This document shows positions 1 through 57,930 of a stretch of DNA of 64,000 nucleotides, one piece after another. Position 1 is the first letter of the stretch. Every line of letters begins with the position of its first letter. The position numbers and the translations under genes are program-made. The stretch comes from Thermoplasmata archaeon (GTDB lineage Archaea; Thermoplasmatota; DTKX01; DATEUP01): NCBI GenBank assembly GCA_041485285.1, contig JBGPJF010000004.1:24468-88467 (forward strand), in the 5' to 3' direction. Below the pieces are notes generated by a model. It saw nothing but the letters and a program-made list of their open reading frames with translations. It did not search any database and was not told where the DNA came from.

Positions 1-17
1 TCGTCGCCGACGGCCGC

Positions 18-25402: not shown

Positions 25403-25459
25403 TATCTAGATTTGCCATCAGTCAGGTAGCGAGCGCGTGAGTGGGCGAGTGCAACGCCC

Positions 25460-31402: not shown

Positions 31403-31456
31403 GACGATTCCCGTTGCGCGGCTCCGCCTCCACGAGGCGGCCTGGCTCAATTCCGT

Positions 31457-31528
31457 GCGGCTATAGTCTAGCGGTCAGGACTGGAGCTTCCCAAGCTCTA
31501 AACCCGGGTTCAAATCCCGGTGGCCGCA
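31457..31528 (+). tRNA. tRNA-Gly (anticodon CCC), no encoded CCA
   Basis: Cloverleaf by hand. Acceptor GCGGCTA/TGGCCGC plus discriminator A. D-stem AGTC/GACT. Anticodon stem GGAGC/GCTCT with loop TTCCCAA. T-arm CCGGG-TTCAAAT-CCCGG. Confidence 0.8.
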
Positions 31529-31602
31529 TTCCCTCTCCCCACGCGCACCGCGCGCCTCGCGAAAACGGAAACTATTTGGGCGGATGCCCGCCTGGCATTC
31601 GC

Positions 31603-35825: not shown

Positions 35826-36548
35826 TCAGGGCCGGATTTCATCCCACGTGGCGGCCCACGCGTCGAGCAGGTCGTCCCCGAACGACTTCTTGTGGGCGAG
35901 CAGCACCTTGGCCACTTCGCGCTCGTTGAGGACGGTGAAGTAGGTCTCGCGGCCCTCGCGCCTGCGGGAGAGGATCCCGCGCTTCTCGAGTTTCTTGAGG
36001 TGGTAGTGGAGGGTGGAGCCGGAGATCGAGAAGGCTTCGCGCACCTGCCCGAAGTTCAACCCCGGGTTGAGCAGCAGGTGCATAACGATGCGCCGCGGGA
36101 TTTCCTGGCGCAGCGCGCCGATGAGCTCGCGGTCCAAGCCCCCCATTTGGCCCGCGACGTAGTAGCGGCGGTAGATCCCGTCCTCGCGCTCGGTCACAAG
36201 CTCGAGGCGGACGAGTTCGCGCAGGTGGTACTCGACGGTGCCAAGCGGCAGCTGCAGGGCCTGCTGCACCCCGCGCAGGTGGGTGCCCGGGAAGTCGCGG
36301 ACGAACTCGAAGATGATCTGGCGCGTGGATCGCGGGGGCGTGCGGTCGCGGCGCGAGCGCAGCGGGGTCGGCGTCCCTCCCGGCGCCGGCCCCGGCGGCG
36401 GGGCGGGCGGCCCTGAAGGCGGAGGCGGGGGAGGCGGCGGGGCAGGCGGCGCAGGCGGGGGAGGCGGCGGGGCAGGCGGAGGCGCAGCGGCGGCCGCGGG
36501 CCCCGGCGTGGGCGTCGCTCTTCGCTCCGGGGCCCCGTCGTCTGCCAT
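35826..36548 (-). CDS. Transcriptional regulator with two tandem winged-helix (ArsR/TrmB-like) domains and an about 60-aa poly-proline N-terminal tail
   Basis: wHTH1 'FEFVRDFPGTHLRGVQQALQLPLGTVEYHLRELVRLELVTER'. wHTH2 'IVMHLLLNPGLNFGQVREAFSISGSTLHYHLKKLEKRGILSRR'. N-terminus 'PPPAPPPPPPAPPAPPPPPPPPSGPPAPPPGPAPG'. Confidence 0.65.
   Translation of the reverse strand: MADDGAPERRATPTPGPAAAAAPPPAPPPPPPAPPAPPPPPPPPSGPPAPPPGPAPGGTPTPLRSRRDRTPPRSTRQIIFEFVRDFPGTHLRGVQQALQLPLGTVEYHLRELVRLELVTEREDGIYRRYYVAGQMGGLDRELIGALRQEIPRRIVMHLLLNPGLNFGQVREAFSISGSTLHYHLKKLEKRGILSRRREGRETYFTVLNEREVAKVLLAHKKSFGDDLLDAWAATWDEIRP
36415..36500. repeat. Imperfect tandem repeat of about 30 nt (x2-3) inside the poly-Pro coding region of the regulator gene
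   Basis: Sequence 'aggcgggggaggcggcggggcaggcggcgc / aggcgggggaggcggcggggcaggcggaggcgc'. Codes PPPPAPPAPPPP on the minus strand. Likely length-polymorphic. Confidence 0.6.
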
Positions 36549-36647
36549 TTTTCCACCTCCTTTTCTGTTACGTTCTCAACCGGTCGCTTGCAGCCCTCCC
36601 CGCACGCGACCACCGTTTACTGCCGTTTCCTCACCTCCCCCCGGTCT

Positions 36648-36974
36648 TCACTTCATGATGAGCGACAGGTACAGCAGCAGCAGGATCACGAGGTCCACCA
36701 GCAGCAGCACCGTGTCGACGGGCACGATCGCCACGGCCGCGAAAATCGACAGGGCCGTGAGTAAGCCTTTGAGCGCGAAGGCGGCGAAGGCGGCGGTCAC
36801 CCAGATGAGGCGGCGGTTCCCGGTGCGGTGCAGCGACAGCCACGTTGTCCCGGCAAGCCCGATGGACAGCACGATCACGCCTGCAGCCAGCACCACGTCG
36901 ATTACACTCGTCACGCTCTCGTCCTCCGCGACCTTGCTTCCCTTGCCCGGTGCACGCGCGCGAAGCGCAAGCAA
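36648..36974 (-). CDS. Small membrane protein (3 TM)
   Basis: Sequence 'VIDVVLAAGVIVLSIGLAGTTWLSL...LIWVTAAFAAFALKGLLTALSIFAAVAIV...LLLVDLVILLLLYLSLIMK'. Confidence 0.4.
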   Translation of the reverse strand: MLALRARAPGKGSKVAEDESVTSVIDVVLAAGVIVLSIGLAGTTWLSLHRTGNRRLIWVTAAFAAFALKGLLTALSIFAAVAIVPVDTVLLLVDLVILLLLYLSLIMK

Positions 36975-36995
36975 GAGGGCCGCCTGCGGCGGACC

Positions 36996-38429
36996 TCAGT
37001 ACTTCTTCGCGCGCGCGTACACCGAGAAGAAGAACATCGCCGAAACGGCGGCAAGCGCCGCGGCAAACACCAGGGCCGACGGGCGGGGGGGCGCAGGCGG
37101 GGCAGGCGGGACGCCAAGCGGCGGCGGGGCCGGGTTCACCACGACGCCGGCAAGCGGGTCGAGGCCGACGGAGGCAAGCGTCGGCCCGGCGGGGGCCGCA
37201 AGGTAAAGCGTGAGCGTTTGGTTGTTGAGCGCGCGCGAGGCCGACACCTGCGCGAAGCGCTGCTGGCCGGAGGCGAGCGCCTGGTCGGCGAGCGTGAGCC
37301 ACGCGAAGTATCCGATGACCGCTCCCGTCGCGTTCACGGCGGTGACGCGCTCCAGGTCGGCGGGGGTGCTCGACGCGATCGGCGCATTCGAGAGGTTTCC
37401 GGCCGCGGGGTCCAGCCGTTCATAGCCGCCCGGGCCGGCCACGAGGTAGGTGGCGCCCGCGGCCTGCGCCTTCAGGTCGACCTGGAACGCGAGGTCGCTG
37501 CCGGGCAGCGTGCCGTTGAGGCGCATGCGCAGGTCGACCTTGAGCTCGAAGCCGCCGAGCACGGGCACCGGCAGCGGCCCCGGCGCGGTGCCGTTGCGCT
37601 GTGTGATGAGGAAGGAAAGCGAAGCTTCCGCACCCACGGGCGTTGGGCACCAAGTGCCCGTGAACTGAACGGGGGCCGACAGCGTGAAGCGAACGAAGCT
37701 GCCGAAGTCGGGCGAGGGGCCGACATCGAGCGACACAAGCGCCCACGGGGCCCCGCCAAGGTCGGCCGCGCACAGCGCTTCGGAGCCGTTGAACGCGCCG
37801 TTGCCGTCGGTGTCGGCAAACGCCACGGCCCGCTCAAAGGTCGCCTCGATGCCCGTGAGGGACCCGCCTGACGGCGCGAAGCGCAGTTGCGGTCGCGTCA
37901 AGTTCACGGTCGCGTTCATCCACGGGGAGGCAAGCTGCACTTGGCCTGGCCCCACCTGCAGGCGCGGCCGGTCGCCAAGCGGCGTCGGCTCGAAGTCCGA
38001 CGCAAGGTACGGCGGCGAGGTGAACGATGCGTTCTCGTCGAACGCCCCCGAAGGCGCCGAGGTGAGCCGCACCGTCAGCGTGTACGGCCCGTCAAGCTGC
38101 TTCTCGCTGATCGTGGGACCTTCAATGCGCACCGTCAGCACCGCAGCGCCGGCCTGCAGGTTGGCCTGCGATGAGGTGGATGCAACGACCGTGCCGCCCG
38201 CCGGCCAGATCAGGGTCGCATTGGCGAGGTAATTGCCCGTCGCCGGCGGCGAGAGCGCCAGCGTGATGTTGAGGTAGTCGTCGAGCCCGTTGCCGCTTGT
38301 GTCCACCGCGTCGAAGTCCGCGCGCACGATCGAGGCGGAGGGGTCTGCGTGCCCCGCGGGGACGAATGACGCGAGGAGCGCCAGCGCCGCAATGAAAATG
38401 GCGCGCGCCCGGGCCCGTCCATCCCCCAC
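36996..38429 (-). CDS. Secreted/surface protein with a C-terminal TM anchor (PAPPAPP linker, hydrophobic helix, KKY)
   Basis: Signal-like 'ARAIFIAALALLASFVPAGHADPSAS'. C-terminus 'PPAPPAPPRPSALVFAAALAAVSAMFFFSVYARAKKY'. Beta-rich and Asn-X-Thr rich. Confidence 0.5.
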   Translation of the reverse strand: MGDGRARARAIFIAALALLASFVPAGHADPSASIVRADFDAVDTSGNGLDDYLNITLALSPPATGNYLANATLIWPAGGTVVASTSSQANLQAGAAVLTVRIEGPTISEKQLDGPYTLTVRLTSAPSGAFDENASFTSPPYLASDFEPTPLGDRPRLQVGPGQVQLASPWMNATVNLTRPQLRFAPSGGSLTGIEATFERAVAFADTDGNGAFNGSEALCAADLGGAPWALVSLDVGPSPDFGSFVRFTLSAPVQFTGTWCPTPVGAEASLSFLITQRNGTAPGPLPVPVLGGFELKVDLRMRLNGTLPGSDLAFQVDLKAQAAGATYLVAGPGGYERLDPAAGNLSNAPIASSTPADLERVTAVNATGAVIGYFAWLTLADQALASGQQRFAQVSASRALNNQTLTLYLAAPAGPTLASVGLDPLAGVVVNPAPPPLGVPPAPPAPPRPSALVFAAALAAVSAMFFFSVYARAKKY

Positions 38430-38535: not shown

Positions 38536-41500
38536 CTAGCACGGCGGCGGCGGGCTGTTCGGGTCGGCAAGGAACTCGCGCGGCACATTGCACCACTCGG
38601 GGTGGCTCGCCGGGTCGCGCGGGTTGAACCAGGGCGACGAGCGCGCCTCGATGACCGTCTTCCAGCCGTCGAGGTCGGGGTCGGCCTCGCGGCCGTTCAC
38701 GCCGGTGCGGTCGGCGTCGTCGAAGCCGAACATGGCCTCGTACCACCGAGGCAGCTGGTCGAAGTCCCGGTCCTTGAAGTACTGCACGAACCCGTCGACC
38801 GGGCCCTGGCAGTTCTGCGCCGCGGCGGTGATCTTCTTGCCCGGGTGCGTCGTGACTTCGTTGATCCCGTCGCCGTCGATATCGTCGCCGAACCAATACT
38901 CCTCGATGTTCGTGAACTGCTCGTTGTCGAGGTAGTCGTCGACCACGCCGTCGCCGTTGAAGTCCCGGCGCGTGATGACCGCGGGGTAGCTGCCGGAGCA
39001 GATGTCAATCGGCTGGCTCGAGTCGACCACGCGGCTGTAGTTCCAGCCGTCGTTGTCGGGGTCCTGGTTCGCGTCGCCCGGGTAGAGGGGGTCGAGGATC
39101 GGCTTGCCGGTCGTTGCGTTGCCAATCGCGTACTGGACTTCCCAGCCGTCCGGCATCCCGTCGCCGTCGGTGTCGGGGTCGAACGCGCTCGTCTTCTTCA
39201 CGGCCTCCACGGTGTTGTTGATCCCGTCGCGGTCGATGTCGCCCGTCGAGTCGCCGCGGCGGACCGGGTTCAGCGCGGTGGCATTGACCGATGGGTTTGT
39301 GGGACGCTTGGAGTGCCACAGGATCACCGGGTCGAGGTCCTTGTCGTCCGTGTAGAACTTCTGGTAATCGACGCGCGTCTGCGTGAAGTTGAAGCTGCCG
39401 TCCACGCGGATGACCGGGTGTCCGGGGTTGTCCCACGCGTCATAGTCCGAGTCGCCCATGCGCGGGTTCGTCGAGATGTGGTTGTAGGGGTCGCGGGCGT
39501 ACACGTACTCCTCCCAGTTCGTCCAGTTGTCCGCGAGGATGACGATGCCCGTGTCAGGGTCAACCTCGTGGGTCGCGTTGAGCTCCTTGTCGAGGTTCGT
39601 GCTGTAATCGGCGGGGTCCGCGGGGTTGAGCCCGTAATAGGACTCCCACCAGTCGGCCATCCCGTCGTGGTCGCCGTCGCAGGAGAGTGGGTTGGCGATG
39701 AACACGTGGTTGTACTTGTCGGGGACCGCTTCGTCGAGGTGCCCGCGGGGCGGGGTGTTGTAGAGGTACTCGTCGAGGTCGAAGAACCCGTCGTTGTCCG
39801 CGTCGGCAGAGCAGCCGTTCGAGGGGACATAGGGGTCGAACAGGTTGGCCTTCTCCCACCAGTCGGGCATCAGGTCGCCGTCGGTGTCCGCGTAGACCGG
39901 GAGCCGCGGGATGTAGAACTTGCCCGGCTGCTCGTTGGTGTCGATGACGCCGTCGCCGTCGGTGTCAAGGTCGATGGGGTTGAGGCGCAGGATGTACTCC
40001 TGCATGTTCGTGAGGCCGTCTCCGTCGAAGTCGTCGTTGACGTCGTCGATGAGGTTCCCGTTGGCGTCGGTCTCCTTGTAGGCGAGCGGGTAGATTCCAA
40101 GGAAGTCGAGCTCCCATTTGGTCGGCAGCCCGTCCCCGTCGATGTCGCTGTTGTCGAATTCGAAGCCGTCCGTGAGCCCGTCGCCGTCGGTGTCGGGGAT
40201 GGTGGGGTCGGTCGAGTCCACCTGCTCCTTGGCCGTGCCCGCGATGAAGTTGCCCGGAATCCAGTCCGTGTTGACCTCGAAGCCGTCTTGGAGTCCGTCG
40301 TTATCCGTATCTGGGTTTAATGGATCCGTACAGCGCGTCACGTTGTCCGTGAACCCAGGCAGGTAGAGCCGCATGCACTCTTCGAGGCCGCCCTCCACCA
40401 CGTGGGGCACCTCGTTGAAGTCGTCGAGCTTGTCGCCGTCGGAGTCCTTCAGGTTCGGGTTCGTCCCCTGGATGCCGGGCTTGCTCTCGTTGCGGTCGGT
40501 GAAGAGTTCGACCCAGTCGGAGAGGCCCTCGAGGTCGGTGTCGGCGTTGGTCGCGTTGGTCTTGTAGATCGTGACCTCGTTCCAGTCGCACAGGTCGTGC
40601 TCCTCGTCGACGCCCTCCGGCAGCCAGGACGAGGGCTCGGTGCCCGCCGGGCCGGCGGTCGGGACCTTGCCAAACGGCCCGTCGTCGATGACGCTGTCGC
40701 CGTCGTTGTCGATGTTGTCGTTCTGCTGGAACTTGGCGTCGCCGTCGTTGTCCACGCCGTCGAGGATCTCCTCGCAGGGCGCCGAGTTGCCATCGCCGTC
40801 TTCGTCATCGGGGTGGTCGTCGATGTCGGTGTCGGCCGTGGTGGCGTCGGTGCGGTAGGAGTAGGTCTTGCCCTCGACGCTGACCGTCCAGGTCTTGGTC
40901 ACTTCGTCGAAGTCGGAGAGGAAATCACCGTCGGTGTCGATGCGCCGCGGGTTGGTGTGGGCGTAGAACTCCTGGAGGTTCGTGAGCCCGTCGGGGGTGA
41001 CCACGCCGCGGGTCAGGTCAACGTCCTGCAGCGCGTCGTTGTGGCACGTGTCAAGGGTGTACTGCGCCTCCCAGCCGTCGGGCATCAGGTCTTGGTCCGT
41101 GTCGTTGTTGCGCGGGTTGAGGCGGCAGCCCGGGTTGTTGTACTCGTTGATGTTCGGAAGGCTGTCGTTGTCGGGGTCCTGGAATTTGTCCGAGCCGTTC
41201 AGCGGCAGCAGGCTGTAGAACACTTCCCAGCCGTCGTCCATCCCGTCGCCGTCGGTGTCGGGGCTGATCGGGTTGGTGCCGAGGATGAGGACTTCCTGCA
41301 TGTCGGCGGTGTTCCAGTCGGTGATCGGGACGCCTTCCTCGGGCACCGGGTAGGTGTCGTTGTCCGAGTCGGCCTGGTCGGGCCGCGTGTGGAGGTAGAA
41401 CTCGTCGATGTTGGTGCCGGCCAGCACGAAGTCGCTCGGCGACACATCGGGGGGGACTTCGCGCAGGCACGTGCCGTTGACGGGGTCGCGCGGCAGGCAC

Positions 41501-42732
41501 TGGCGGTTGGTGAGGGGGCTGTAGTACTCCTGGTAGCTGATCATGATCCCGTCGTTGTCGGGGTCGAGGTGGGCGTCGGTCGTGTTGACGGGGGAGAGGA
41601 AGAAGTCCCAGACCCACTGGAGCACGGTCGAGCCGTTGGTGGCAAGCGCGTGGCCCTTGCCGTAGTGGGCTTCGAACCCGTCCCACATGCCGTCGCCGTC
41701 GGTGTCGCGCAGGAGGGGGTTGGAGCCCGTGAGGCGCCCGCTTCCATCATAGTCGTGCCAGGTCTGGTATTCCTGGATGTTCGGGAACGTCTCGCCGCCG
41801 CGGACTTCGAGCCACCAGTTCTGCGCGTTGTCCGGGTCGACGTGGAAGAGCCCTTCGAGGTTGATGAGGTCGCCTTCGATCCAGCCGCCGGTGCGCTGCT
41901 GCCACGCGGCAAGCTGGGCGGGGCGGCTCGAGCCCGAGGTGAGTTCGACGCGCAGGTCGCACTCGTCGCGCGGGGTGTAGAGGGTCGCCAGCCCTTCCGA
42001 GCGGGTGGTGGTGTCGGTGACATGGACGTTGAGGGCGGAGGAGGGGTTGGTGTCGGGGTCGCCGTAGGTGCCGTTGTCCATCACGGCGGTGCGGTCGAAC
42101 CGCACGAGGAGGCCGTCGTAGGCGAGCTGGTTCTGCGAGAGGGCGCACACACCGAGGGTGGTGTACTGCGACTTCGGGGGGATCGAGAGGTTCGAGCGCA
42201 GGACCGAGTCCTGGTAGGAGTCGACGCGGTTGTTGTTGTTGAAGTCGTAGCCGTCGTTGTCGGGGTCTTCGTAGGCGTCGGTGGGGTCGACGGGGTCGAT
42301 GACCAGTTCGCGGGTCTCGCTGTTGCGGGTGTCCTTGTACTGGACTTCCCAGGGGTCGGGCATCCCGTCGCCGTCGGTGTCGACCTTGTTGACGTCGGTG
42401 CCGTAGATGTAGTTCTCATCGATGTCGAAGAGGCCGTCGTTGTCGCTGTCGATGCCGGGGATGTGGGGGGTGGGCTGGAGGGCCGAGAGAGGCTCCTGGC
42501 CGACGGGCTTGTACACGCCCGCGGTTTGCGAGGACAGGAACGCGGCCACGACAATCATGAGGAGGGAGGCGGCGATGAGTACCGCGACCACGAGGATTTC
42601 GAGGTTGAGCGTGGGGAGCCACGAGCCTTTCTCCTCGGTGGCAGGGGCCTCGGGGCCCAGCGTGGTTGCTCTCGAACCAACGGCCGGGGTCGCCACGATA
42701 TTTCCCTTCCCGCACCATCTTGTTGCATTCAA
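38536..42732 (-). CDS. Giant (1398 aa) surface protein built of calcium-binding thrombospondin-type-3-like Asp-rich repeats, with an N-terminal signal anchor
   Basis: More than 25 copies of 'DxDxDGxxDxxE'-type motifs ('DTDGDGMPDPWE', 'DTDGDGMDDGWEVFY', 'DSDNDTY', 'DPDNDG'). N-terminal TM 'LEILVVAVLIAASLLMIVVAAFL'. Confidence 0.7.
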   Translation of the reverse strand: MNATRWCGKGNIVATPAVGSRATTLGPEAPATEEKGSWLPTLNLEILVVAVLIAASLLMIVVAAFLSSQTAGVYKPVGQEPLSALQPTPHIPGIDSDNDGLFDIDENYIYGTDVNKVDTDGDGMPDPWEVQYKDTRNSETRELVIDPVDPTDAYEDPDNDGYDFNNNNRVDSYQDSVLRSNLSIPPKSQYTTLGVCALSQNQLAYDGLLVRFDRTAVMDNGTYGDPDTNPSSALNVHVTDTTTRSEGLATLYTPRDECDLRVELTSGSSRPAQLAAWQQRTGGWIEGDLINLEGLFHVDPDNAQNWWLEVRGGETFPNIQEYQTWHDYDGSGRLTGSNPLLRDTDGDGMWDGFEAHYGKGHALATNGSTVLQWVWDFFLSPVNTTDAHLDPDNDGIMISYQEYYSPLTNRQCLPRDPVNGTCLREVPPDVSPSDFVLAGTNIDEFYLHTRPDQADSDNDTYPVPEEGVPITDWNTADMQEVLILGTNPISPDTDGDGMDDGWEVFYSLLPLNGSDKFQDPDNDSLPNINEYNNPGCRLNPRNNDTDQDLMPDGWEAQYTLDTCHNDALQDVDLTRGVVTPDGLTNLQEFYAHTNPRRIDTDGDFLSDFDEVTKTWTVSVEGKTYSYRTDATTADTDIDDHPDDEDGDGNSAPCEEILDGVDNDGDAKFQQNDNIDNDGDSVIDDGPFGKVPTAGPAGTEPSSWLPEGVDEEHDLCDWNEVTIYKTNATNADTDLEGLSDWVELFTDRNESKPGIQGTNPNLKDSDGDKLDDFNEVPHVVEGGLEECMRLYLPGFTDNVTRCTDPLNPDTDNDGLQDGFEVNTDWIPGNFIAGTAKEQVDSTDPTIPDTDGDGLTDGFEFDNSDIDGDGLPTKWELDFLGIYPLAYKETDANGNLIDDVNDDFDGDGLTNMQEYILRLNPIDLDTDGDGVIDTNEQPGKFYIPRLPVYADTDGDLMPDWWEKANLFDPYVPSNGCSADADNDGFFDLDEYLYNTPPRGHLDEAVPDKYNHVFIANPLSCDGDHDGMADWWESYYGLNPADPADYSTNLDKELNATHEVDPDTGIVILADNWTNWEEYVYARDPYNHISTNPRMGDSDYDAWDNPGHPVIRVDGSFNFTQTRVDYQKFYTDDKDLDPVILWHSKRPTNPSVNATALNPVRRGDSTGDIDRDGINNTVEAVKKTSAFDPDTDGDGMPDGWEVQYAIGNATTGKPILDPLYPGDANQDPDNDGWNYSRVVDSSQPIDICSGSYPAVITRRDFNGDGVVDDYLDNEQFTNIEEYWFGDDIDGDGINEVTTHPGKKITAAAQNCQGPVDGFVQYFKDRDFDQLPRWYEAMFGFDDADRTGVNGREADPDLDGWKTVIEARSSPWFNPRDPASHPEWCNVPREFLADPNSPPPPC

Positions 42733-42988
42733 TCGCGATGGGTGCGATAGTTACACCGCCAGCGTGTGGGCGGAGTATCCGGGGATCAAAGCGTCCATAT
42801 ATGAAGGCTTCGAGCGGCGGCACCTTGGACTCAACAACGTGTAATCGCCGAAGAATTTCGGGCGTGCAGTTGGAATTTCCTCCGGGGCGGCGCGCGTCTA
42901 CTTCGGCGCGGCCGGTGGCGCTGCTGGATCTTGCGCTAGTGCCGTGATTCGAAACAGACTTCGGCATTTCACGGCGAAAGATTCGAAT

Positions 42989-43014
42989 CCATGGAGGGGG
43001 ATACCCCTCCATGG
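42989..43014 (+). promoter_or_regulatory. Perfect 11-bp-stem hairpin overlapping the transposase start codon (probable translational attenuation of transposase)
   Basis: Sequence 'CCATGGAGGGG-GATA-CCCCTCCATGG'. The 3' arm contains the ATG at 43011. Confidence 0.5.
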
Positions 43015-44111
43015 TCCTACACGTCCGTGAGATCTCGAACGACGAGGGCAACCGCCTCTCCCGCCTCGTGAAGCGAACGAACAACGTTGTCACGATGCGT
43101 CGCGCACAGGTTCTCCTTCATTCCGCCCAAGGATTCACTCCACCGAAGATCGGCGAGATGCTCTGGATCTCGACAGACTGGGTCCGGCACATCATCAAGG
43201 AGTTCAACGAGCAGGGGTTCGATTCCCTGCGCCCGAAGCCGCGCGGGGGCGGGCGCCCCCGCGTGTTCGACGACGAGATTCGACTGGAGATGGTCAACCT
43301 CGCCCTCACGCCACCCCGAACGCTCGGGTACCCTTTCGAGAAGTGGTCGCTGCGCAAGCTGCGCGAGGCGATCATCGAACAGGGAATCGTTGCGGACATC
43401 AGCGTCTCGAACGTCCAGAAGATCATGACGGAGGAGATGCTCGGCTACCAAGTCGTGAAGACCTGGAAGGAGAGCAAGGACCCCGACTTCCACGAGAAGA
43501 AGAGTCGGGTCGACCGCCTCACGCGCAAGCGCCACAACCCTCCCGTCGTGATCGCGTACGACGAGTTGGGGCCGCTCGAATTGCGGCCCATCAAGGGCGG
43601 GCACTGGGCGCGGTCGGGGCACCCCGACCGCGTGCCGGCCACGTACAAGCGGAAGGGCGGGACGAGGCAGTTCCTTGTGGCGTTCAATTTCTACAAAGGG
43701 ACTTTCTTCGGGCGCCTTCGAAAGCGCAAGCGCTCGAAGGAGATCTTCGCCTTTTTCCGGCTCGTCCGTCGGCACTACCCAGCGGACCAACGGATCTACC
43801 TGATCATGGACAACCTGTCGGCGCACCTCACGCCCGAAATCCGCGTGTGGGCCAAGGCCCACAAGGTTACGCTCGTCCAGACCCCGACGAACGCCTCGTG
43901 GTGCAACCCGATCGAGGCGCACTTTGCAAGCGTGCGGACGCTCGCCTTTTCGGGGACCAACCACCAAGATTGGAGCGCTGCGGGCCGCGCGCTCCACAAG
44001 GCGCTTCGATGGAAGAACTCGCACCGCAAGGAGATGCTGCAGGCGCGCGAGGACCGCCGGCGGAGGCGCCGGCGGCAGCTCTGGCGAGTACGGGCAAATG
44101 TAGGAGCCTAG
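43011..44111 (+). CDS. IS630-family transposase (HTH plus DDE domain)
   Basis: N-terminal HTH, 'DELGPLELRP', 'LIMDNLSAHLT', 'NASWCNPIEAHF' (DD(34)E-type). Confidence 0.85.
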   Translation: MVLHVREISNDEGNRLSRLVKRTNNVVTMRRAQVLLHSAQGFTPPKIGEMLWISTDWVRHIIKEFNEQGFDSLRPKPRGGGRPRVFDDEIRLEMVNLALTPPRTLGYPFEKWSLRKLREAIIEQGIVADISVSNVQKIMTEEMLGYQVVKTWKESKDPDFHEKKSRVDRLTRKRHNPPVVIAYDELGPLELRPIKGGHWARSGHPDRVPATYKRKGGTRQFLVAFNFYKGTFFGRLRKRKRSKEIFAFFRLVRRHYPADQRIYLIMDNLSAHLTPEIRVWAKAHKVTLVQTPTNASWCNPIEAHFASVRTLAFSGTNHQDWSAAGRALHKALRWKNSHRKEMLQAREDRRRRRRRQLWRVRANVGA

Positions 44112-51722: not shown

Positions 51723-52232
51723 TTAGGCGGGTGGCGGCCCCAAGCGCTCCGAGATCTTGTGGTGGGCGAAGCGCATCAGCTGCCTAAGTTCGTGCACGTA
51801 TTCCCGCTCGGAAATGACCTTGCCAAGCGTCGGGCCATCGACGATTGCGCTGAGTTCGGGTCCCGCATCGAGGTACCAATGGAAGTCGGCAACGGACGGG
51901 TGCTTACGGTTGGCGCCCTCCGACCAATGACTGCGGGTGACCTGCGCGAAATGGATGCGGGCGCCAAGAGTTTCCCGACGGGAATAGTGCGTGGCGATCA
52001 CCCAGGTGGGTCCGAGTTCGAAGAAAGGAGAGGGGCGCGCCCGGTTTACCCAAGAGAGGAAGGGCAAACCGTTTGCCGCGTTTAGGGTCCCGAACAAGAA
52101 CAACCCCGCGATGGCGAGGTCCACAGCGGCGTCGAGTTCGTTCTCGGGCTCGCGGATTTCGACGCGGCGGATGCGACCGGCCGTGGGCGCGCCAGGGGGT
52201 GCGGATGCAGACGAATCGTTGCCAACTTCCAT
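51723..52232 (-). CDS. Hypothetical protein
   Basis: ORF with typical codon usage. No recognisable domain. Confidence 0.3.
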   Translation of the reverse strand: MEVGNDSSASAPPGAPTAGRIRRVEIREPENELDAAVDLAIAGLFLFGTLNAANGLPFLSWVNRARPSPFFELGPTWVIATHYSRRETLGARIHFAQVTRSHWSEGANRKHPSVADFHWYLDAGPELSAIVDGPTLGKVISEREYVHELRQLMRFAHHKISERLGPPPA

Positions 52233-52370
52233 GGGGGGCCCCGTCGCTGATGACTACGTGCCCGGCCTGATGAAGATTCGCGCGCGGTGAACCGCCGTCA
52301 TCCTCCTCAGCATTGAATAGCGAAGGCCCCGATGGCCGCCGGGCAAGCGCGCGCGGGAAGGTAGACGGAA

Positions 52371-52727
52371 GTGAGCGTGGCGGTGGCGGCGGTAAGTGAC
52401 ATGTTCTTCGCGTCAAAGCTGAAGGAAGCCGCCAAGGCGTCGGGCACCGAGCTTGTCTTCAGCAAGTCGCTTTCGGACACCGTCGAGAAGGCCGCCACCT
52501 CGAAGGCCAAGGTCATCCTCCTCGACCTGAACGGCGACGACTACTCGCGTCTCGATGCCGTCCGCGCCCTCAAGGCCGACCCGCGCACGCGTGGCGCGAC
52601 AACGATTGGCTACCTCTCCCATGTCATGACTGAGCTCAAGCTCGAGGCCGAGGCCGCCGGCTGCGACCGAATCCTCGCCCGTTCGGCCTTCGTGAAGCTC
52701 CTGCCGAGCCTGCTTGCCGAGGCGTGA
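52371..52727 (+). CDS. Stand-alone response-regulator receiver (CheY-like) domain protein
   Basis: Sequence 'KVILLDLNGDDYSRLDAVRALK...TTIGYLSH...AFVKLL' fits the REC topology, with Asp in the phospho-acceptor position, Thr/Ser, and Lys. The N-terminal acidic pair is degenerate (SD). Confidence 0.45.
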   Translation: MSVAVAAVSDMFFASKLKEAAKASGTELVFSKSLSDTVEKAATSKAKVILLDLNGDDYSRLDAVRALKADPRTRGATTIGYLSHVMTELKLEAEAAGCDRILARSAFVKLLPSLLAEA

Positions 52728-52792
52728 CCGCGCGGCTCAGTCAATTAGTTCCACCAATTTGATATAATAACGAACGGCGAGAAGAGAGCACG

Positions 52793-54199
52793 ATGGCCCC
52801 CCGCGCGGCGCGCCTCTGGATCGCGGCGCTTTTGGTTTGCCTGCTTGCGCCATCGCTTGCGGCCGCCGACGACCAGGGCAGCGTCGGCGCGACGGTGAAG
52901 CTCGACCAAAGCGCGCTGACCGCGAGCATGTATCACGTGACGGCGGATTTGCGGGTTCCATTCACCGGCACCGTCCACATCACGACGGACCGCGGACACC
53001 GCGTTGCCCTCACCCTGACGGTGGTCGGCGGCAGCTGGGTTTCCGACATCGCCCCCTCGCCGTTCCCGCCCTCGCAGACGACGACCGATGTCCGCGTCAC
53101 GGGGTGGGTCGAGGTGCCGCGCCAAGTCGCCGAAGGCGTCTACTCCCTAGCGCTGCGCGCCAGGGACAATGATACCATCTTCCCGATCGACACGCAGGCC
53201 CCGTTCACGGTCTCGGTCTTCCGCGGCCCGCTTGCGATCTTCCCCGCGGCCGAGGGGAAAACGCTCTTGCCGGGCGGCGCCGCCCGCTGGAACCTGACGC
53301 TGCGGAACCTTGGCTCGTTCGACTTCGACTTCGATGAGGCGTTCACGGTCCCGACCGGCTTCACCTATTCGGTCGTGAACCCGGGCATCCAGATCCTCAA
53401 CGCGGGCGACGAGGCGTACGTGCTCGTGACGGTCCGCGCGGGCGCGACGGTGATTGCGGGGGACTACACCTGGTCGGTCGCGGTCTCCTCCAGCTCGAAC
53501 CCCGAGGTCTCCACCTCCACCACCATCCCCTACTCGGTCGACCGCATTGTCGCGACGCCCCCCACGGGCACGCCTGACTTCCTCGGACAGTACTGGGTGG
53601 CGATCAGCATCGGCATGTTCGCGGTCGGAATCGTCGCGTACTTCTCGCTCACCGAAGTCGGGTACCTCGCCCTCTCGTTCTCCGTCCTCGTCCCCCTATT
53701 CACCCGCATCCGCCACGAGAAAGTCCTCGACAACTTCACGCGCGGGCAGATCTTCGGCTACATCCAGGCCAACCCCGGCGCGCACTACTCCGCGATCCAG
53801 CAGGTGCTCGACATCGAAAACGGGGTGCTGGCGTACCACCTGCGCGTCCTGCTGCGCGAGGAGTTCGTGGTGGCGCGCAACGAAGGCGTGTTCAAACGCT
53901 TCTATCCGCGCGACTACAAGATCCCGAAGGGCCGCACGCTGCTCACGCGCCTCCAAGTCGACATCCTCGAAGCGGTCGAGAAGTCGCCGGGCATCTCGCA
54001 GCGCGATGTCGCGTACGCGCTTGGCGAGTCGAAGCAGGTGATTTCGTACAATGTGGGCGTCCTGCGCGAGGCCGGCATCCTCAGCGGGGAGCGGCGCGGC
54101 CGCGAGGTGCTCCTGCGCGCCGTTGGCCCCACGAGCGGCAAGCGCGACCCCGAAGACGTCGCAGGCGCGACCGCCCCGTCCGACCTCACTTCGCTCTGA
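52793..54199 (+). CDS. Membrane-anchored transcription regulator: signal peptide, extracellular CARDB-like beta-sandwich domains, 2 TM helices, then a cytoplasmic tandem winged-helix (ArsR/MarR-like) pair
   Basis: Signal 'LWIAALLVCLLAPSLAAA'. 'NLTLRNLGSFDFDFDEAFTVPTGFTYSV'. TM helices 'YWVAISIGMFAVGIVAYFSL' and 'GYLALSFSVLVPLF'. wHTH1 'IFGYIQANPGAHYSAIQQVLDIENGVLAYHLRVLLREEFV'. wHTH2 'ILEAVEKSPGISQRDVAYALGESKQVISYNVGVLREAGIL'. Confidence 0.6.
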   Translation: MAPRAARLWIAALLVCLLAPSLAAADDQGSVGATVKLDQSALTASMYHVTADLRVPFTGTVHITTDRGHRVALTLTVVGGSWVSDIAPSPFPPSQTTTDVRVTGWVEVPRQVAEGVYSLALRARDNDTIFPIDTQAPFTVSVFRGPLAIFPAAEGKTLLPGGAARWNLTLRNLGSFDFDFDEAFTVPTGFTYSVVNPGIQILNAGDEAYVLVTVRAGATVIAGDYTWSVAVSSSSNPEVSTSTTIPYSVDRIVATPPTGTPDFLGQYWVAISIGMFAVGIVAYFSLTEVGYLALSFSVLVPLFTRIRHEKVLDNFTRGQIFGYIQANPGAHYSAIQQVLDIENGVLAYHLRVLLREEFVVARNEGVFKRFYPRDYKIPKGRTLLTRLQVDILEAVEKSPGISQRDVAYALGESKQVISYNVGVLREAGILSGERRGREVLLRAVGPTSGKRDPEDVAGATAPSDLTSL

Positions 54200-54392
54200 G
54201 ATCGCGGCCCGTCCAAGTGGGCCACCACTTTTCTTAATATAGCAGGCGCCCACGGCAGCGGTGCAGGAGCTTGAGCGCGTGCGAAATTTGACGCCTGGGT
54301 GGGACGGAAAAACGGCTGGAGTGCCTGGCCGACCGCCCCTCAAGGGTTAAATATCGTACGCACGATCGAGCGACCGCCAGGAGCCAATCCGT

Positions 54393-55301
54393 ATGCAAGC
54401 CAGCAAGAGAATTGCACAGACATCGATCGCGTTCATGGTTGTCGTCTCGGCCTTCCTGGCCCTCGTGCCTGCCGCATCGGCTCAGAACCCGGTTCCCGTC
54501 ATCGCCCTTACCCTGACGCCCGGCGAGCGCGTTGCTGAAATCACAGCGTCGTCCCCCAAGGCCGTTCAGTTCAACGGGAACGCAACGTTCGACAAGCTCA
54601 GCTTCGAGCGCGGGCAGGTCTCGATCTTGGCGACCGTGTCGACCGGGTGGGTTACGACCGTTTCGCCGGCCTCCATCACGGTCACGAACCAGCGCTCCAT
54701 CATCTACACGGTCACGGTCGTAGTCCCGGCGGGCGCGCTCGCGACCGAGATCGGGCAGCTGTTGGTCACCGGCCGCATCAGCGCGGGCGGGCTGCAGTCC
54801 CAAGCCCAGGCGCAGGCGATTGTCTCGCCGGCCGCCTACTTCCGCACGATCGCGTCCTCGACCACGCCGTTCATGGAGAGCGGGTACTCGACGCAGGTCG
54901 TCGCCGTGTTCAAGATCTACAATGAAGGCAACGTGCGCGACCAAGTCAAAGTCAACATCAAGAACCTCGAGGACCTCTCGGCGGCTCAATGGGTCGTCCA
55001 GATGTCGCGCACCTCGTTCACAATCGAACCCACCCTGTTCCAGGACATCCAGGTGACCATCGCGCTGCCGAAGGTGTGGCAGTTCACCTCGGACAACAAG
55101 GTCACCGTGATCGACCTCCAGGTCTCGTCGGGCGGCGCCGTGGAAGCTGGCGGCTCGTTCACCGACTCGCTCCCGATCTTCATCCGCACCGTCGGGTTCT
55201 CGGTGCCGGGCTTCGACGCGACCTTTGCCGTACTCGGCGTGTGCGCGGCGGCGCTGGGCGCGGGGATGGCAAGCGGAAAGCGCCGGCGGATCATCAAGTG
55301 A
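54393..55301 (+). CDS. Secreted surface protein with a PGF-CTERM archaeosortase (ArtA) sorting signal
   Basis: Signal peptide 'IAFMVVVSAFLALVPAASAQ'. C-terminus 'FSVPGFDATFAVLGVCAAALGAGMASGKRRRIIK' is PGF, then a TM helix, then a basic tail. Confidence 0.65.
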   Translation: MQASKRIAQTSIAFMVVVSAFLALVPAASAQNPVPVIALTLTPGERVAEITASSPKAVQFNGNATFDKLSFERGQVSILATVSTGWVTTVSPASITVTNQRSIIYTVTVVVPAGALATEIGQLLVTGRISAGGLQSQAQAQAIVSPAAYFRTIASSTTPFMESGYSTQVVAVFKIYNEGNVRDQVKVNIKNLEDLSAAQWVVQMSRTSFTIEPTLFQDIQVTIALPKVWQFTSDNKVTVIDLQVSSGGAVEAGGSFTDSLPIFIRTVGFSVPGFDATFAVLGVCAAALGAGMASGKRRRIIK

Positions 55302-55363
55302 GGGCGCGCTCCTCCTTGAAGGGCCAAACCACGAGCGGACGCTTTGGGAGTTGAACCGGACGG

Positions 55364-56494
55364 ATGTCGCGCAGCATCCACGACGAGGAAATCCTGCACG
55401 ATGACGAGCGTGCAAGCGACGCCGACGCCGCCATCGGCGCGTTCTCGAAGAAGACGATGACGATGCTCATCGTGGTGCTCGTCGTGGTCGGCGCGGTCGC
55501 GGGCGTCATCGTGCTCTTCTCGGTCGACGAGGGCGCCGCCCAGAGCGTCGTGCTGACCGGCCCCAGCCGCACCGACGACCTGCTTACCTTCGCGTACACG
55601 ATCAAGACGGACCGGGCCCCCGCGACGGGCGCGACGGCGCTCACCATCACCCACGACGGCGCCACCGTGCATTCGCGCAGCTTCGCGGCCGGGGGCGGCG
55701 GCGGGCGGATCGACGTCCACCTTGCGGAATTCACAGTGGCCAACGGCGACTACCTGTTCAAGCTCCAATACAAGGACAGGACGGGCACCGCCACGTACAC
55801 GATCGGGACGCCCGAGACCACGAACTTCATCGTGACGGCCATCGGCGCCCCGAGCGTGCCTCCAGGCGCTGAGGCGGCCACGACGGTCTACGGCGCCGGA
55901 GGCGGCGACGCGCACATCGGAGCGATCGCCTACTCCGTGTACTTCTTCAGCGACATCTCGGCAAACCTCCAGACAAAGGCCCCCCCGGGTTCGATGCTCG
56001 CGATGCAGGTGAGCAAGAATGGGATCGCCATTGACGTGCCCCTGAATGTGTCGGTCGAGGGCAAGACCTTCTACACGCACAATTTCACCGTGGGAGCAGC
56101 CGAGCCGGGCAATTTCACCGTGGATGCCACATTCACCAACCAGTGGGTCAAGCCCGACTCCCCCATCAAGACGCTCACGCTCTCGAACAGGACCTTCGTG
56201 CAAAACCGCCCCTACGCGTGCGTGGTGGGCTCGCCGTACCACGGCAACAACGCCAACAGTTACACGATAACCGCGGACGCAAGCTGCTCGCATGACGACA
56301 TTGCCATCGTCCAATTCACCTGGTATTTCGGCGACAACACCCAGCCGGTGACCAACGGCGCGATCCCCACCGAGACGCACACGTATCCGTCGAGCACGAT
56401 TTCGCGCAGCTACACCGGGTCCGTCTGCGCCTATGACACGCACTCCGGGGAGCCCGACTGCGTGGACTTCACGGTCACGACTTCGCAGACGTGA
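55364..56494 (+). CDS. Secreted protein with an N-terminal signal-anchor and a C-terminal PKD domain
   Basis: TM 'MLIVVLVVVGAVAGVIVLF'. C-terminal 'IVQFTWYFGDNTQPVTNGAIPTETHTYPSSTISRSYTGSVCAYD' is PKD-like. Confidence 0.55.
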   Translation: MSRSIHDEEILHDDERASDADAAIGAFSKKTMTMLIVVLVVVGAVAGVIVLFSVDEGAAQSVVLTGPSRTDDLLTFAYTIKTDRAPATGATALTITHDGATVHSRSFAAGGGGGRIDVHLAEFTVANGDYLFKLQYKDRTGTATYTIGTPETTNFIVTAIGAPSVPPGAEAATTVYGAGGGDAHIGAIAYSVYFFSDISANLQTKAPPGSMLAMQVSKNGIAIDVPLNVSVEGKTFYTHNFTVGAAEPGNFTVDATFTNQWVKPDSPIKTLTLSNRTFVQNRPYACVVGSPYHGNNANSYTITADASCSHDDIAIVQFTWYFGDNTQPVTNGAIPTETHTYPSSTISRSYTGSVCAYDTHSGEPDCVDFTVTTSQT

Positions 56495-56497
56495 CCA

Positions 56498-57247
56498 TCA
56501 GTCCGAAGGTGTAGCCGCTGCCGCAGCGGCCGCGTACAGGTCGCCCCTGCTCCCTTTTGCGCGGCCGAAGCGCTTGGCGAAGAGGAACGTGAGGTTCTTC
56601 CGCCCGTCGCGCCAGCTCGAGAGCACGGCCTCGCCGATGCGCACGCGGTAGTCGATTTGGACTTCGAGGGCCTTGCCCTTGCGCGCGCGGAACGCTTCGA
56701 TCTTGAGTTCCTCCGAGAAGGGCATCCCGTCGGCGGTGAGGGTGAGGTCCTTCAGCAGTTCGCGGCGGAACACCCACATGCCGCTCTGCGAGTCCTTGAT
56801 GGGCACGCGGAAGAGCACGCGCGTGGTGACGGAGAGCACGAAATTGCCGAACCGGTGCCCGCCGCTCATCGCTTCCTTGCGCAGGTTCGATAGCCGGTCG
56901 CACGTGATGAAGTCGAGGCCCGCGGAAACGAGGCGGTCTGCAAGTTCGCCGATGCGCTCCGCGGGGTAGGTGAGGTCGCCGTCGAGGGTGGCGATGAAGT
57001 CGCCTTTGGCCTCGAGGAAGCCGGTCTTGTAGGCGCGGCCGTAGCCTTTGCGGGGCTCGACGATGACGCGGGCGCCTTTGGCGCGGGCGATGTCCTGCGT
57101 GTTGTCGGCGGAGTTGCCGTCGACGATGATCACTTCGAGCACGCCTTCGGGGATCTCGTCGAGGACGCCGCCGATGGATTTGCCCTCATTCAGGGTGGGG
57201 ATGACCACGCTCGTGCGCGAGAGGGGGGTGCGCGCTGCGTCGGCCAT
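56498..57247 (-). CDS. Family-2 glycosyltransferase (dolichyl-phosphate hexosyltransferase-like, Dpm1 type)
   Basis: Sequence 'VVIPTLNEGKSIGGVL...VIIVDGNSADNT...LDGDLTYP...QSGMWVFRRELL'. Confidence 0.8.
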   Translation of the reverse strand: MADAARTPLSRTSVVIPTLNEGKSIGGVLDEIPEGVLEVIIVDGNSADNTQDIARAKGARVIVEPRKGYGRAYKTGFLEAKGDFIATLDGDLTYPAERIGELADRLVSAGLDFITCDRLSNLRKEAMSGGHRFGNFVLSVTTRVLFRVPIKDSQSGMWVFRRELLKDLTLTADGMPFSEELKIEAFRARKGKALEVQIDYRVRIGEAVLSSWRDGRKNLTFLFAKRFGRAKGSRGDLYAAAAAAATPSD

Positions 57248-57457
57248 CGCGCCCCGAGCGGCGGGCCGACTTTAAGGTTTAGGGGGCCGATGCGCGAAAG
57301 CGCAACCGCAGGACGGAATTCGGTAGCGAGAAGTCTGACCCGGTTGTCGTTTTGAAACGCACCAAAATGGGCACCCTTCTCCGTTTGCCCATCCCCACCG
57401 GTAGTGAGGGGCCTTGAACGACATCCTTAACACCTATGGGTTCTACATAGTCCCTAT

Positions 57458-57658
57458 ATGGCGACACCCAAGGTAACCACAATCCAGCTCCCCCCAAAGG
57501 TGCGCGACCGCCTGAAGGGCTACGGGTTGAAGGGTCAGTCGTACGCCGACGTCGTCGTCCAGCTGATGAACCGCGTTGACTACGAGGAATTCATGGAACG
57601 GCAGTACCGGCGGCTGGCCAAGCGGAAGGACTTCACGCCGCTCGACGAGATCGCATGA
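57458..57658 (+). CDS. Small antitoxin-like protein partnered with a RelE/ParE toxin
   Basis: 66 aa. The stop overlaps the toxin start by 4 nt (ATGA). 'TIQLPPKVRDRLKGYGLKGQSYADVVVQLM'. Confidence 0.55.
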   Translation: MATPKVTTIQLPPKVRDRLKGYGLKGQSYADVVVQLMNRVDYEEFMERQYRRLAKRKDFTPLDEIA

Positions 57659-57930
57659 CGTTCCAGGTCTCCCTCCACCGGGAGGCGCGCAAATTTCTGG
57701 AGCGAGTTCAGCGGACGCAAGGGCAGCGAATCAAAGCCGGGCTCCGGGCGGTGGAGGTCGACCCCTTCACGCCGCGCTCGGGCGCAGACATCAAACGGCT
57801 CGACGGGACGCGCGGGCGCGACGACCTGTATCGGCTACGCGTCGGGAAATTTCGCGCGGTTTACCAGGTTGACGGCAGCGACGTCCTCGTCCCCGAGATC
57901 TGGGAGCGCGGCCACGGCTACGACATTTAG
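57655..57930 (+). CDS. RelE/ParE-family toxin
   Basis: Sequence 'FQVSLHREARKFLERV...RIKAGLRAVEVDPF...GADIKRLDGTRGRDDLYRLRVGKFRAVYQVDGSDVLVPEIWERGHGYDI' is the canonical RelE/ParE signature. Confidence 0.75.
   Translation: MTFQVSLHREARKFLERVQRTQGQRIKAGLRAVEVDPFTPRSGADIKRLDGTRGRDDLYRLRVGKFRAVYQVDGSDVLVPEIWERGHGYDI

Follow-up and report, generated by a model that had tools for sequence, protein, structure and literature searches.

An Exported Ectodomain Joined to a Dual Winged-Helix Module

The 64-kb stretch of Thermoplasmata DNA analyzed here (the window; G+C content, 64-71%) carries at 52793..54199, on the plus strand, a gene for a 468-residue protein that is probably a transmembrane transcription regulator (TTR) with predicted DNA binding. 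The gene is the second of four same-strand open reading frames (ORFs): a gene for a receiver-like protein precedes it (52371..52727), and genes for a choice-of-anchor T family surface protein of 302 residues (54393..55301) and a 376-residue protein with a PKD-like domain (55364..56494) follow. A first-pass annotation made from the letters of the stretch had delimited all four, and they hold up as coding regions, with third-position GC of 0.86-0.89 and homologs for each; independent gene callers return identical coordinates for the last three and a version of the first that is 10 codons shorter. The identical regulator sequence was found on a 90-kb public contig, where it is labeled "predicted transcriptional regulator" and the two genes downstream of it are each labeled "hypothetical protein."

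From its N terminus the regulator, a predicted type I single-pass membrane protein, consists of a signal peptide (amino acids [aa] 1-26; 52793-52870), two immunoglobulin (Ig)-like beta-sandwiches forming a divergent choice-of-anchor T domain (aa 32-249; 52886-53539), a transmembrane (TM) helix (aa 263-285; 53579-53647), a juxtamembrane helix of the form TEVG...PLFTR (aa 288-305; 53654-53707), two winged helix-turn-helix (wHTH) domains (wHTH1, aa 308-372, 53714-53908; wHTH2, aa 386-443, 53948-54121), and a disordered acidic tail (aa 449-468). The domains and helices behind the signal peptide were placed with an AlphaFold2 (AF2) model built from 55 homologs (mean predicted local distance difference test [pLDDT] score, 86.7; 59 homologs were found), together with hhalign for the beta-sandwiches, hydropathy for the TM helix, and the family alignment for the juxtamembrane helix. 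In the same model, aa 4-26 form a signal-peptide-like helix, followed by SLAAAD.

Pfam assigns wHTH1 to PF24266 (HTH_HVO_0163_N; aa 316-376, E 1.2e-11) and wHTH2 to HTH_24/MarR_2 (aa 384-431; HTH_24, E 4.8e-10), with HTH_20 and MarR_2 likewise above their cut-offs, and NCBIfam adds similarity of the ArsR/SmtB type. By PDB sequence search, wHTH1 matches 5DUK (E 6e-6), a free-standing putative DNA-binding protein of 77 aa, and wHTH2 matches ArsR regulators. PF24266, HTH_24, HTH_20, MarR_2, and the ArsR-type PDB matches thus supply the predicted DNA-binding domain by which a TTR is defined. The signal-peptide-like helix, the exported beta-sandwiches, and the two wHTH domains proposed in the first-pass annotation are all borne out by Pfam and AF2, and the sequence is still best read as that of a one-component wHTH protein tethered to the membrane and bearing a beta-sandwich domain outside the cytoplasm. 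The proposed CARDB-like character of the ectodomain is not: there is no Pfam CARDB match, and profile comparison identifies a divergent choice-of-anchor T domain in its place. A Foldseek search with the whole model returned only generic tandem Ig/FnIII matches (RbmA, MG domains, and S-layer domains) and was uninformative on function.

The topology also needed revision. A signal peptide, two TM helices, and cytoplasmic wHTH domains, as first proposed, are internally inconsistent, because with two spans behind an exported domain the wHTH pair would end up outside as well. A comparison covering 85 distinct family modules, from 80 genome loci plus the first loci, indicates instead a single TM helix at aa 263-285, with aa 288-305 forming a conserved juxtamembrane helix. 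In these modules a variable hydrophobic span of ~20 residues leads to a near-invariant Thr/Ser-Glu-x-Gly, then, after a Lys or Arg that directly follows TE-x-G in 52 of the 85, to 9-12 hydrophobic residues, Pro-Leu-Tyr/Phe-Thr-Arg/Lys, and a basic cluster; Glu288, Pro301-Leu302, and Arg/Lys305 are near invariant throughout. The window protein has hydrophobic residues at the Lys/Arg positions (TEVGYLALSFSVLVPLFTR), and its juxtamembrane helix therefore mimics a second TM helix.

The resemblance is the basis for the alternative that both helices are true TM helices, which would place the wHTH pair outside the cell as a non-DNA-binding extracellular module. Just Thr-Glu separates aa 263-285 from aa 288-305, both are hydrophobic helices, and the second, hydrophobic over all 18 residues in this protein, could in principle span the membrane. 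However, most relatives carry Lys or Arg at the homologous positions and have only the 9-12-residue hydrophobic stretch there, and the distant members P0052, P0054, and P0059 (P numbers denote homologous proteins, L numbers loci) have a single hydrophobic span. Charge is strongly positive behind the second helix: mean net charge per sequence is -0.96 in the 15 residues before the TM helix and +2.01 in residues 304-312, and the isoelectric point (pI) of the cytoplasmic module is 9.8 in the window protein (family median, ~10), compared with 4.7 for the ectodomain. The module also exists in proteins that have no export signal, namely a soluble paralog in the window (35826-36548) and the free-standing 5DUK. 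These points make an extracellular wHTH pair extremely improbable, and we take the regulator as a protein predicted to have one TM helix, its ectodomain outside, and its wHTH pair inside.

The regulator belongs to a large family. A phmmer search with residues 283-449 against 1.84 billion representatives returned at least 237 clusters at E <= 1e-30 and 2,176 at E <= 1e-10. The 150 matches listed are proteins of 168-2,280 aa, every one with the module at its C terminus, and a scan of one genome per GTDB species found it in ORFs of 341-2,744 aa plus four shorter ones (185-196 aa) that appear split. A hydrophobic helix directly precedes the module in essentially all complete members, and 63 of the 70 long ORFs that are complete show a hydrophobic segment at the N terminus; ectodomains of other members are of the PKD or CARDB type. 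Single genomes hold at least three copies (for example, CP070751, CP070739, CP070629, and JAHFTX01), and the titles of the metagenome-assembled genomes in which relatives were found by the scan name Thermoplasmatota/Thermoplasmata, Methanomassiliicoccales, Marine Group III, Methanobacteriota, and "uncultured archaeon." Short stand-alone dual-wHTH ORFs occur at L022:7980-8537, L055:7986-8573, L060:5815-6369, and L084:3-2025; in L084, from Marine Group III, the ORF overlaps the end of an upstream ORF for a choice-of-anchor T-like ectodomain. Frameshifts, errors of assembly, or true gene splitting may explain these short ORFs.

A Three-Gene Cassette and Its Promoter Elements

The surface protein encoded at 54393..55301 (plus strand) is a clear member of NCBIfam family NF041740, choice-of-anchor T (137.3 bits against a cut-off of 70; E 4.8e-40; profile positions 3-258 of 259). 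Behind a signal peptide come two beta-sandwiches, and the C-terminal tail consists of PGF (aa 272-274), a TM segment, and KRRR. Pairwise BLASTP between this protein and the regulator ectodomain gives nothing significant (E 0.49), and the NF041740 model does not match the window regulator, either whole or as the ectodomain alone. Profile-to-profile comparison of 13 regulator ectodomains with 10 downstream proteins in hhalign, by contrast, aligns the two over 229 columns at 99.1% probability (E 1e-18). The NF041740 scores of orthologous regulators range from 28 to 87 bits, with P0024 and P0031 above the cut-off of 70; NCBI names P0024 solely as choice-of-anchor T, and cross-matches between family hidden Markov models (HMMs) confirm the kinship in every locus. 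By these profile comparisons, the regulator ectodomain is a divergent choice-of-anchor T domain and an ancient paralog of the downstream surface protein or proteins, with the window sequence itself below formal NF041740 membership.

The first-pass annotation had called 54393-55301 a PGF-CTERM surface protein and a substrate of archaeosortase ArtA. A secreted beta-sandwich protein with a tripartite tail stands: the PGF motif, hydrophobic helix, and basic end (...SVPGFDATFAVLGVCAAALGAGMASGKRRRIIK) can be read directly from the sequence. The assignment to a sorting class fares less well, as C-terminal sorting-signal models match neither the whole protein nor its tail even at E up to 10. Among five C-terminal tails scanned, those of three close orthologs match no model and the PGF-CTERM model never matched, and a distant homolog has a tail that scores 21.4 bits with the Loki-CTERM model, above its cut-off of 19.9. 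No archaeosortase candidate is present in the 64-kb window, where the only multi-TM ORF encodes a Na+/H+ exchanger, and the 26 window ORFs scanned include no gene for an archaeosortase, a site-2 protease, or a histidine kinase. In an alignment with nine orthologs and paralogs, tandem choice-of-anchor T proteins end in PGF-like tails or in plain TM segments with basic tails, and this variation among tandem paralogs is the "choice of anchor."

The linkage that had been proposed between the regulator, the surface protein, and the PKD protein proves to be conserved across deep lineages. Seventeen distinct loci have a regulator with a choice-of-anchor T-type ectodomain, and in 13 of them the order is regulator, one to six tandem choice-of-anchor T genes (at least two in L006, L012/L013/L016, and L018), and PKD-protein gene; lineages whose regulators are 33-37% identical keep it. 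In 12 distinct loci a family HMM detects the PKD-protein gene behind the choice-of-anchor T genes, and in L006, where the locus ends, just a weak precomputed PKD_4 match marks it.

The PKD protein, the conserved last gene product of the cassette (55364..56494, plus strand), had been described as secreted. It does have a PKD-like stretch near its C terminus (aa 298-343), but it is not simply secreted: a cytoplasmic N-terminal peptide of ~30 aa precedes a TM anchor at aa 32-54 and an uncharacterized ectodomain, a type II arrangement. The window protein lies under the Pfam thresholds (PKD_4, 20.1 bits against 27, E 6.8e-4; PKD, 18.6 against 23.5), and its orthologs in L003-L005 have precomputed PKD_4 matches at E <= 1e-5. 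The family shares a conserved cytoplasmic peptide, M-(S/A)-R-S-I-H-D-E (window 55364-55390; L003:8587-8613; L004:8596-8622), which could contact the cytoplasmic part of the regulator.

The 65-bp gap before the regulator gene contains a promoter-like element (52740..52769, plus strand), delimited by a block conserved in orthologs and by motif counts, with the form GTCAA-N6-CCACCAATTT-G-ATATAATA. Here ATATAATA is the TATA box (52762-52769), centered ~27 nt before the regulator ATG at 52793, so that by standard archaeal promoter geometry a leaderless mRNA is predicted, with its start at or beside that ATG. Twelve base pairs past the regulator stop codon the composite element repeats with identical spacing as GTCCA-N6-CCACCACTTTTC-TTAATATA (54211..54241, plus strand), where TTAATATA is again a TATA box (54234-54241); also conserved in orthologs, this copy is a candidate distal promoter or operator facing the surface-protein gene. 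Six orthologous loci share CCACCACTTTTCTTAATATA without change amid flanking intergenic DNA that is not alignable, and in the window the sequence occurs once. A 6-bp terminator-like hairpin at 54215-54230 was considered as a reason for the conservation and rejected, since its stem is not kept in orthologs.

The distribution of the element ties it to the regulator gene. GTCMA-N6-CCACCA occurs exactly twice in the window, flanking the regulator gene, and exactly twice, in the same two places, in each of eight orthologous loci; one copy lies upstream of the distant regulator in L017, and the remaining ~1 Mb holds two stray matches, approximately the chance expectation. The two copies around the regulator gene suggest autoregulation. 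A core of CACCAAT(T/C) plus TATA precedes the regulator in L005, L006, L011, L017, and L018, reaching regulators at 33-37% identity, and also precedes members of a subfamily with different ectodomains (L024, L027, L040, L042, and L049). The core motif is found in 23 of 75 family promoters against ~4 expected, a 6-fold enrichment, and of the 33 CACCA(A/C)YY-plus-TATA sites counted across 1.2 Mb of loci, 24 immediately precede or closely follow a gene for a family regulator, counts that include closely related loci and stand for roughly five to six independent deep lineages. Upstream of a family member at L078:~235-255, the core motif forms a perfect palindrome, ATTGGTGCACCAAT, beside an AT-rich box, which hints that CACCAAT may be the half-site of a dimeric operator.

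The choice-of-anchor T gene has a proximal promoter as well (54342..54383, plus strand; a block conserved in orthologs), consisting of AAGGGTTAAATAT, with the TATA box at 54347-54354, a conserved block containing CGATCG, and a GGAG Shine-Dalgarno-like site at 54380-54383, 10 nt before the ATG. AAGGGTTAWATATYG is present 40-50 bp upstream of the choice-of-anchor T gene in L001, L002, L004, L005 (37% identity), L007, L009, and L010. On the plus strand of the window, at 66% G+C, there are eight pure-A/T octamers, and three of them are in the regulator locus (52762-52769, 54234-54241, and 54347-54354), so its TATA boxes are unusually strong for the genome. A sigma-70 promoter scan, a method unsuited to an archaeon, gave no matches.

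Proposed Control from the Membrane and Its Alternatives

We propose, with a probability of about 0.55, that the regulator acts from the membrane, senses by homotypic contact with paralogous surface proteins, and autoregulates through the CCACCA element. A Sec signal peptide would export the two Ig-like beta-sandwiches, and the basic ArsR/MarR-type wHTH pair would stay in the cytoplasm behind one TM helix and the juxtamembrane helix. The ectodomain would interact or compete with the paralogous surface proteins, possibly also with the PKD protein, and such contact would report the state or occupancy of the surface assembly, the signal running through the TM and juxtamembrane segments to the wHTH pair. 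Still at the membrane, as for ToxR, CadC, and ArnR, the pair would bind GTCMA-N6-CCACCA(A/C)T beside a TATA box, with one element at the regulator's own leaderless promoter and a second, in this lineage, before the surface-protein genes; the outcome would be feedback control of cassette expression. Action from the membrane has been described for membrane-bound regulators of both bacteria and archaea (PMC10269533, PMC6396743). Support for the architecture and the cassette is good, and the function is what we infer.

Several observations weigh against this proposal. Downstream cassettes are missing from 4 of the 17 subfamily loci (L011, L014, L017, and L019), the T-run at 54211..54241 could simply be the terminator of the regulator gene, and the CCACCA element could bind another factor or be a specialized B recognition element (BRE). 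The fully hydrophobic second helix and the small number of deep lineages behind the motif counts, both noted above, belong here as well. A further objection comes from wHTH1, which is much more conserved than wHTH2 across the 85 modules. R317, G318, P328, G329, L339, G344, and L353 are invariant in 85/85 and H349 is kept in 84/85. The signature common to the family reads R317-G318, I320, G322, A326-N327-P328-G329, N343-G344, H349, and L353. The wHTH1 recognition helix is almost invariant and therefore fits a shared DNA site, but near invariance in many paralogs per genome argues against gene-specific targets; by sequence, this conservation suggests a common partner or site for all paralogs.

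The same conservation is the main point in favor of an unlikely competitor, in which the TM helix and dual-wHTH module are a structural anchor that tethers or clusters surface proteins through dimerization, a common partner, or nonspecific nucleoid binding. The invariant recognition helix, R317-G318, and A326-N327-P328-G329 fit a common partner better than diverse operators. An anchor would also account for a module that always ends the protein, behind diverse ectodomains (proteins of ~170-2,740 aa) and in several copies per genome, for paralogous ectodomains that carry a plain TM or PGF-like anchor instead, and for the homolog named by NCBI just choice-of-anchor T. Yet 160 residues of basic, double ArsR/MarR-type wHTH would be a costly tether, the conserved cis-element is tied specifically to the promoters of these genes, and wHTH2 varies at typical specificity-determinant positions, its recognition helix being variable at 414, 422, and 423.

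Control from the membrane is also not the only way in which the module could regulate. We regard as quite unlikely a Notch-like route in which a surface event causes the protein to be cut within or close to the TE-x-G ... P-L-Y segment, releasing a soluble dual-wHTH fragment that acts as a regulator in the cytoplasm. The type I orientation with a C-terminal DNA-binding module fits such a route, as do ectodomains of up to ~2,500 aa, which are more adhesin- or receptor-like than small-ligand sensors, and the soluble paralog shows that the module works off the membrane. The near-invariant juxtamembrane motif, with its helix-breaking Pro in all ectodomain types, could be a processing site, but the conserved segment equally fits a signal-transmitting or membrane-interface helix, and neither a site-2 protease nor a rhomboid gene is present in the cassette or among the window ORFs scanned. 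Notch-type factors share with the regulator a signal peptide, a repeat-rich ectodomain, a single TM helix, and an intracellular transcription-factor part, and large adhesin-like ectodomains are possible in the regulator family too. However, there is no homology between them, and proteolytic release is not needed in a cell that has no nucleus.

A bolder and frankly tentative extension, more doubtful than probable in our estimate, is that Notch-like type I receptor-transcription factors form a large family specific to the Thermoplasmatota lineage. Its members would combine hypervariable ectodomains (up to ~2,500 aa), one conserved TM/juxtamembrane switch, a common dual-wHTH output, and a shared CACCAAT-type operator beside TATA, and the choice-of-anchor T sensor would be a decoy-like paralog of the surface proteins it controls. 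If true, this would be direct feedback between cell-surface assembly and transcription, a signaling logic not described in archaea.

The closest precedents for a regulator acting from the membrane are the TTRs, such as ToxR, TcpP, and CadC, which likewise combine an extracytoplasmic domain, a TM segment, and a DNA-binding domain in one polypeptide; like them, the regulator presumably acts on DNA while membrane bound. In ToxR and CadC, whose orientation is type II, an OmpR-type wHTH lies in the cytoplasm at the N terminus and the sensor in the periplasm at the C terminus, whereas the regulator reverses this order, with a cleavable signal peptide and N-terminal ectodomain followed by a C-terminal tandem ArsR/MarR-type wHTH. 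ArnR has an N-terminal HTH, a HAMP-like region, and C-terminal TM helices and is not known to have a large exported domain. Domain order sets the crenarchaeal ArnR and ArnR1 apart from the regulator. A published description differs on this point and gives ArnR an N-terminal TM domain (PMC4858521). ArnR and ArnR1 of Sulfolobus acidocaldarius are, like the regulator, archaeal membrane-bound one-component HTH proteins, and they control genes for cell-surface structures (PMC6396743).

The 2023 census of TTRs by Demey et al. reports ~4 per archaeal genome, 56% of them single pass, the commonest class (PMC10269533). This contradicts the statement in the first-pass annotation that such regulators are uncommon in archaea; its companion statement, that they are essentially uncharacterized there, is fair, ArnR and ArnR1 being the studied examples in the literature searched (PMC6396743). 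The text of the census does not mention Thermoplasmata or the architecture of the regulator (PMC10269533).

Two known families each share one part of the protein. In NF041740 proteins, to which the regulator ectodomain is homologous at the profile level and some orthologs formally belong, the anchor is a sorting signal, whereas the "anchor" of the regulator is a TM helix with a 160-residue DNA-binding module. HVO_0163-type dual-HTH proteins (PF24266) and 5DUK share wHTH1 with it; unlike the regulator, 5DUK and the soluble window paralog are not membrane tethered, and the paralog has neither a signal peptide nor a TM helix. HVO_0163 has been called an ArsR-type transcription protein (PMC10294847), and no target is described for PF24266/5DUK relatives in the literature searched. 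That literature, which included papers on choice-of-anchor, HVO_0163, Thermoplasmata, "dark matter," and type IV pili, contains no description of the regulator family. Neither the type I orientation with a C-terminal dual ArsR/MarR-type wHTH nor the Thermoplasmatota expansion with hypervariable ectodomains was found described in it, and the same is true of the sensor/target paralogy and the candidate operator.

A 2018 survey of 11 Thermoplasmata genomes counted 3 kinases and 4 response regulators (PMC5847659). With Thermoplasmata nearly devoid of two-component systems, how these mostly uncultured archaea sense their surroundings is largely open. The regulator family probably links cell-surface state to gene expression, and a family of at least 237 clusters, in several copies per genome, that couples exported domains to a DNA-binding output would supply much of the answer. 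The locus described here offers a concrete test case, in which a sensor paralogous to the neighboring surface protein, a three-gene cassette, and a candidate operator lie together. It also corrects public annotation, in which cassette genes are labeled "hypothetical protein," the receiver-like gene is called short, and a regulator is named after its ectodomain alone.

The Receiver-Like ORF and Other Genes of the Window

The ORF upstream of the regulator gene (52371..52727, plus strand, GTG start, 118 aa) had been read as a stand-alone CheY-like receiver. The fold is upheld: AF2 predicts a confident (beta-alpha)5 CheY fold (pLDDT 92.3), and Foldseek aligns it with KdpE, DivK, Spo0F, and CheY at template modeling scores (TM-scores) of 0.80-0.85. 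Sequence models do not recognize it, with no PF00072 match at E <= 0.1, NCBIfam response-regulator matches at E 0.007-0.04, far under the cut-offs, and a precomputed Pfam domain in none of its 55 homologs. The canonical receiver set comprises Asp12/Asp13, Asp57, Thr/Ser87, and Lys109 (PMC5847659). Our alignment shows conservation of Asp10 (CheY Asp13) and Asp52 (CheY Asp57). Position 9, a Ser in the window protein, is Asp or Glu in many homologs, and Ser83 is usually kept, but the family has an invariant His84 and Arg104-Ser105 where CheY has Ala88 and Lys109-Pro110. With Lys109 replaced by Arg the catalytic set is incomplete, and the protein is best described as a predicted divergent receiver, possibly a noncanonical one. 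Public gene calls (JGI/NCBI/Logan) begin the gene at ATG 52401 and give 108 aa, dropping the beta1 strand and an acidic residue kept by all homologs; conservation of the strand favors initiation at the GTG at 52371.

The first-pass annotation placed this receiver at the head of a four-gene module, in which its phosphorylation would signal to the regulator and so to an ArtA-processed surface protein and a secreted PKD protein. The ORF does lie 65 bp upstream of the regulator gene on the same strand in the window, L003, and L004, has the CheY-like fold with a conserved phospho-acceptor Asp, and recalls the receiver (REC) genes noted beside ArsR-type HTH genes in thaumarchaea (PMC5847659). However, it is absent upstream of the regulator in L005 and L006, so that the linkage is confined to close relatives, and shared ancestry explains it there, because aIF2-gamma/PIN synteny is present wherever the receiver is. 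A conserved promoter of the regulator's own lies between the two genes, the receiver has an invariant Arg for Lys109, the window ORFs scanned include no histidine kinase gene, and the PGF-CTERM/ArtA assignment of the surface protein is at motif level only. Such a phosphorylation-driven module is, in our judgment, very unlikely, and autoregulation from the membrane remains our preferred account of the locus. The receiver-like ORF and the glycosyltransferase family 2 (GT2) gene flank the cassette in L001-L004, where the aIF2-gamma/PIN synteny is also kept, and are replaced by unrelated genes in L005 and L006; by synteny, both appear to be lineage-specific neighbors outside the cassette core.

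The GT2 gene (56498..57247, minus strand; PF00535, E 2.6e-25) is convergent with the cassette. Its product resembles AglJ and dolichyl-phosphate hexose transferases, the top NCBIfam models being AglJ and DPhHxTase, both under cut-off. An Rfam search of 52000-57500 gave no match. Housekeeping genes of archaeal type in the window are those for aIF2-gamma, a PIN_9 protein, ribosomal protein S6e, the small and large primase subunits, and gyrase A and B.

A second arrangement at 35826-38429, all on the minus strand, had been described as related to the regulator locus. It is a real conserved unit, but its kinship to the regulator locus is through the wHTH module only. It consists of a 477-aa surface protein (36996-38429), a small 3-TM protein of 108 aa with no Pfam match (36648-36974), and a soluble dual-wHTH paralog of 240 aa (35826-36548; PF24266, E 3.2e-18; HTH_20; HTH_24; family HMM, E 8.8e-23), whose poly-Pro stretch is N-terminal and not, as first stated, a tail. 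The order surface protein, 3-TM protein, soluble dual-wHTH protein is conserved in L087 and L088, and the 3-TM protein and wHTH pair recur in L089 at 38% and 49% identity. The 3-TM protein (87-108 aa) is always directly upstream of the soluble paralog (L087:4635-5693, L088:4632-5621, and L089:625-1517), and the two may be a two-protein counterpart of the fused regulator.

Large surface proteins are abundant elsewhere in the window (3-2297, 21158-25405, 31402-34167, and 38536-42732); they include a protein with five PKD domains plus ASPIC/UnbV, a DUF7948/SBBP/PEGA protein ~1,400 aa long, an NPCBM_assoc protein, and a protein of 1,398 aa rich in TSP3-like Asp-rich repeats. Two small genes at 57458-57930, with weak DUF7557 and ParE_toxin matches, form a toxin-antitoxin-like pair inserted between the GT2 gene and a DHH-family gene; the pair is absent from the same spot in L003. 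Adjoining the giant TSP3-repeat gene, at 42948-44108, is a gene for a DDE_3 transposase with HTH_23/HTH_32, probably IS630-like.

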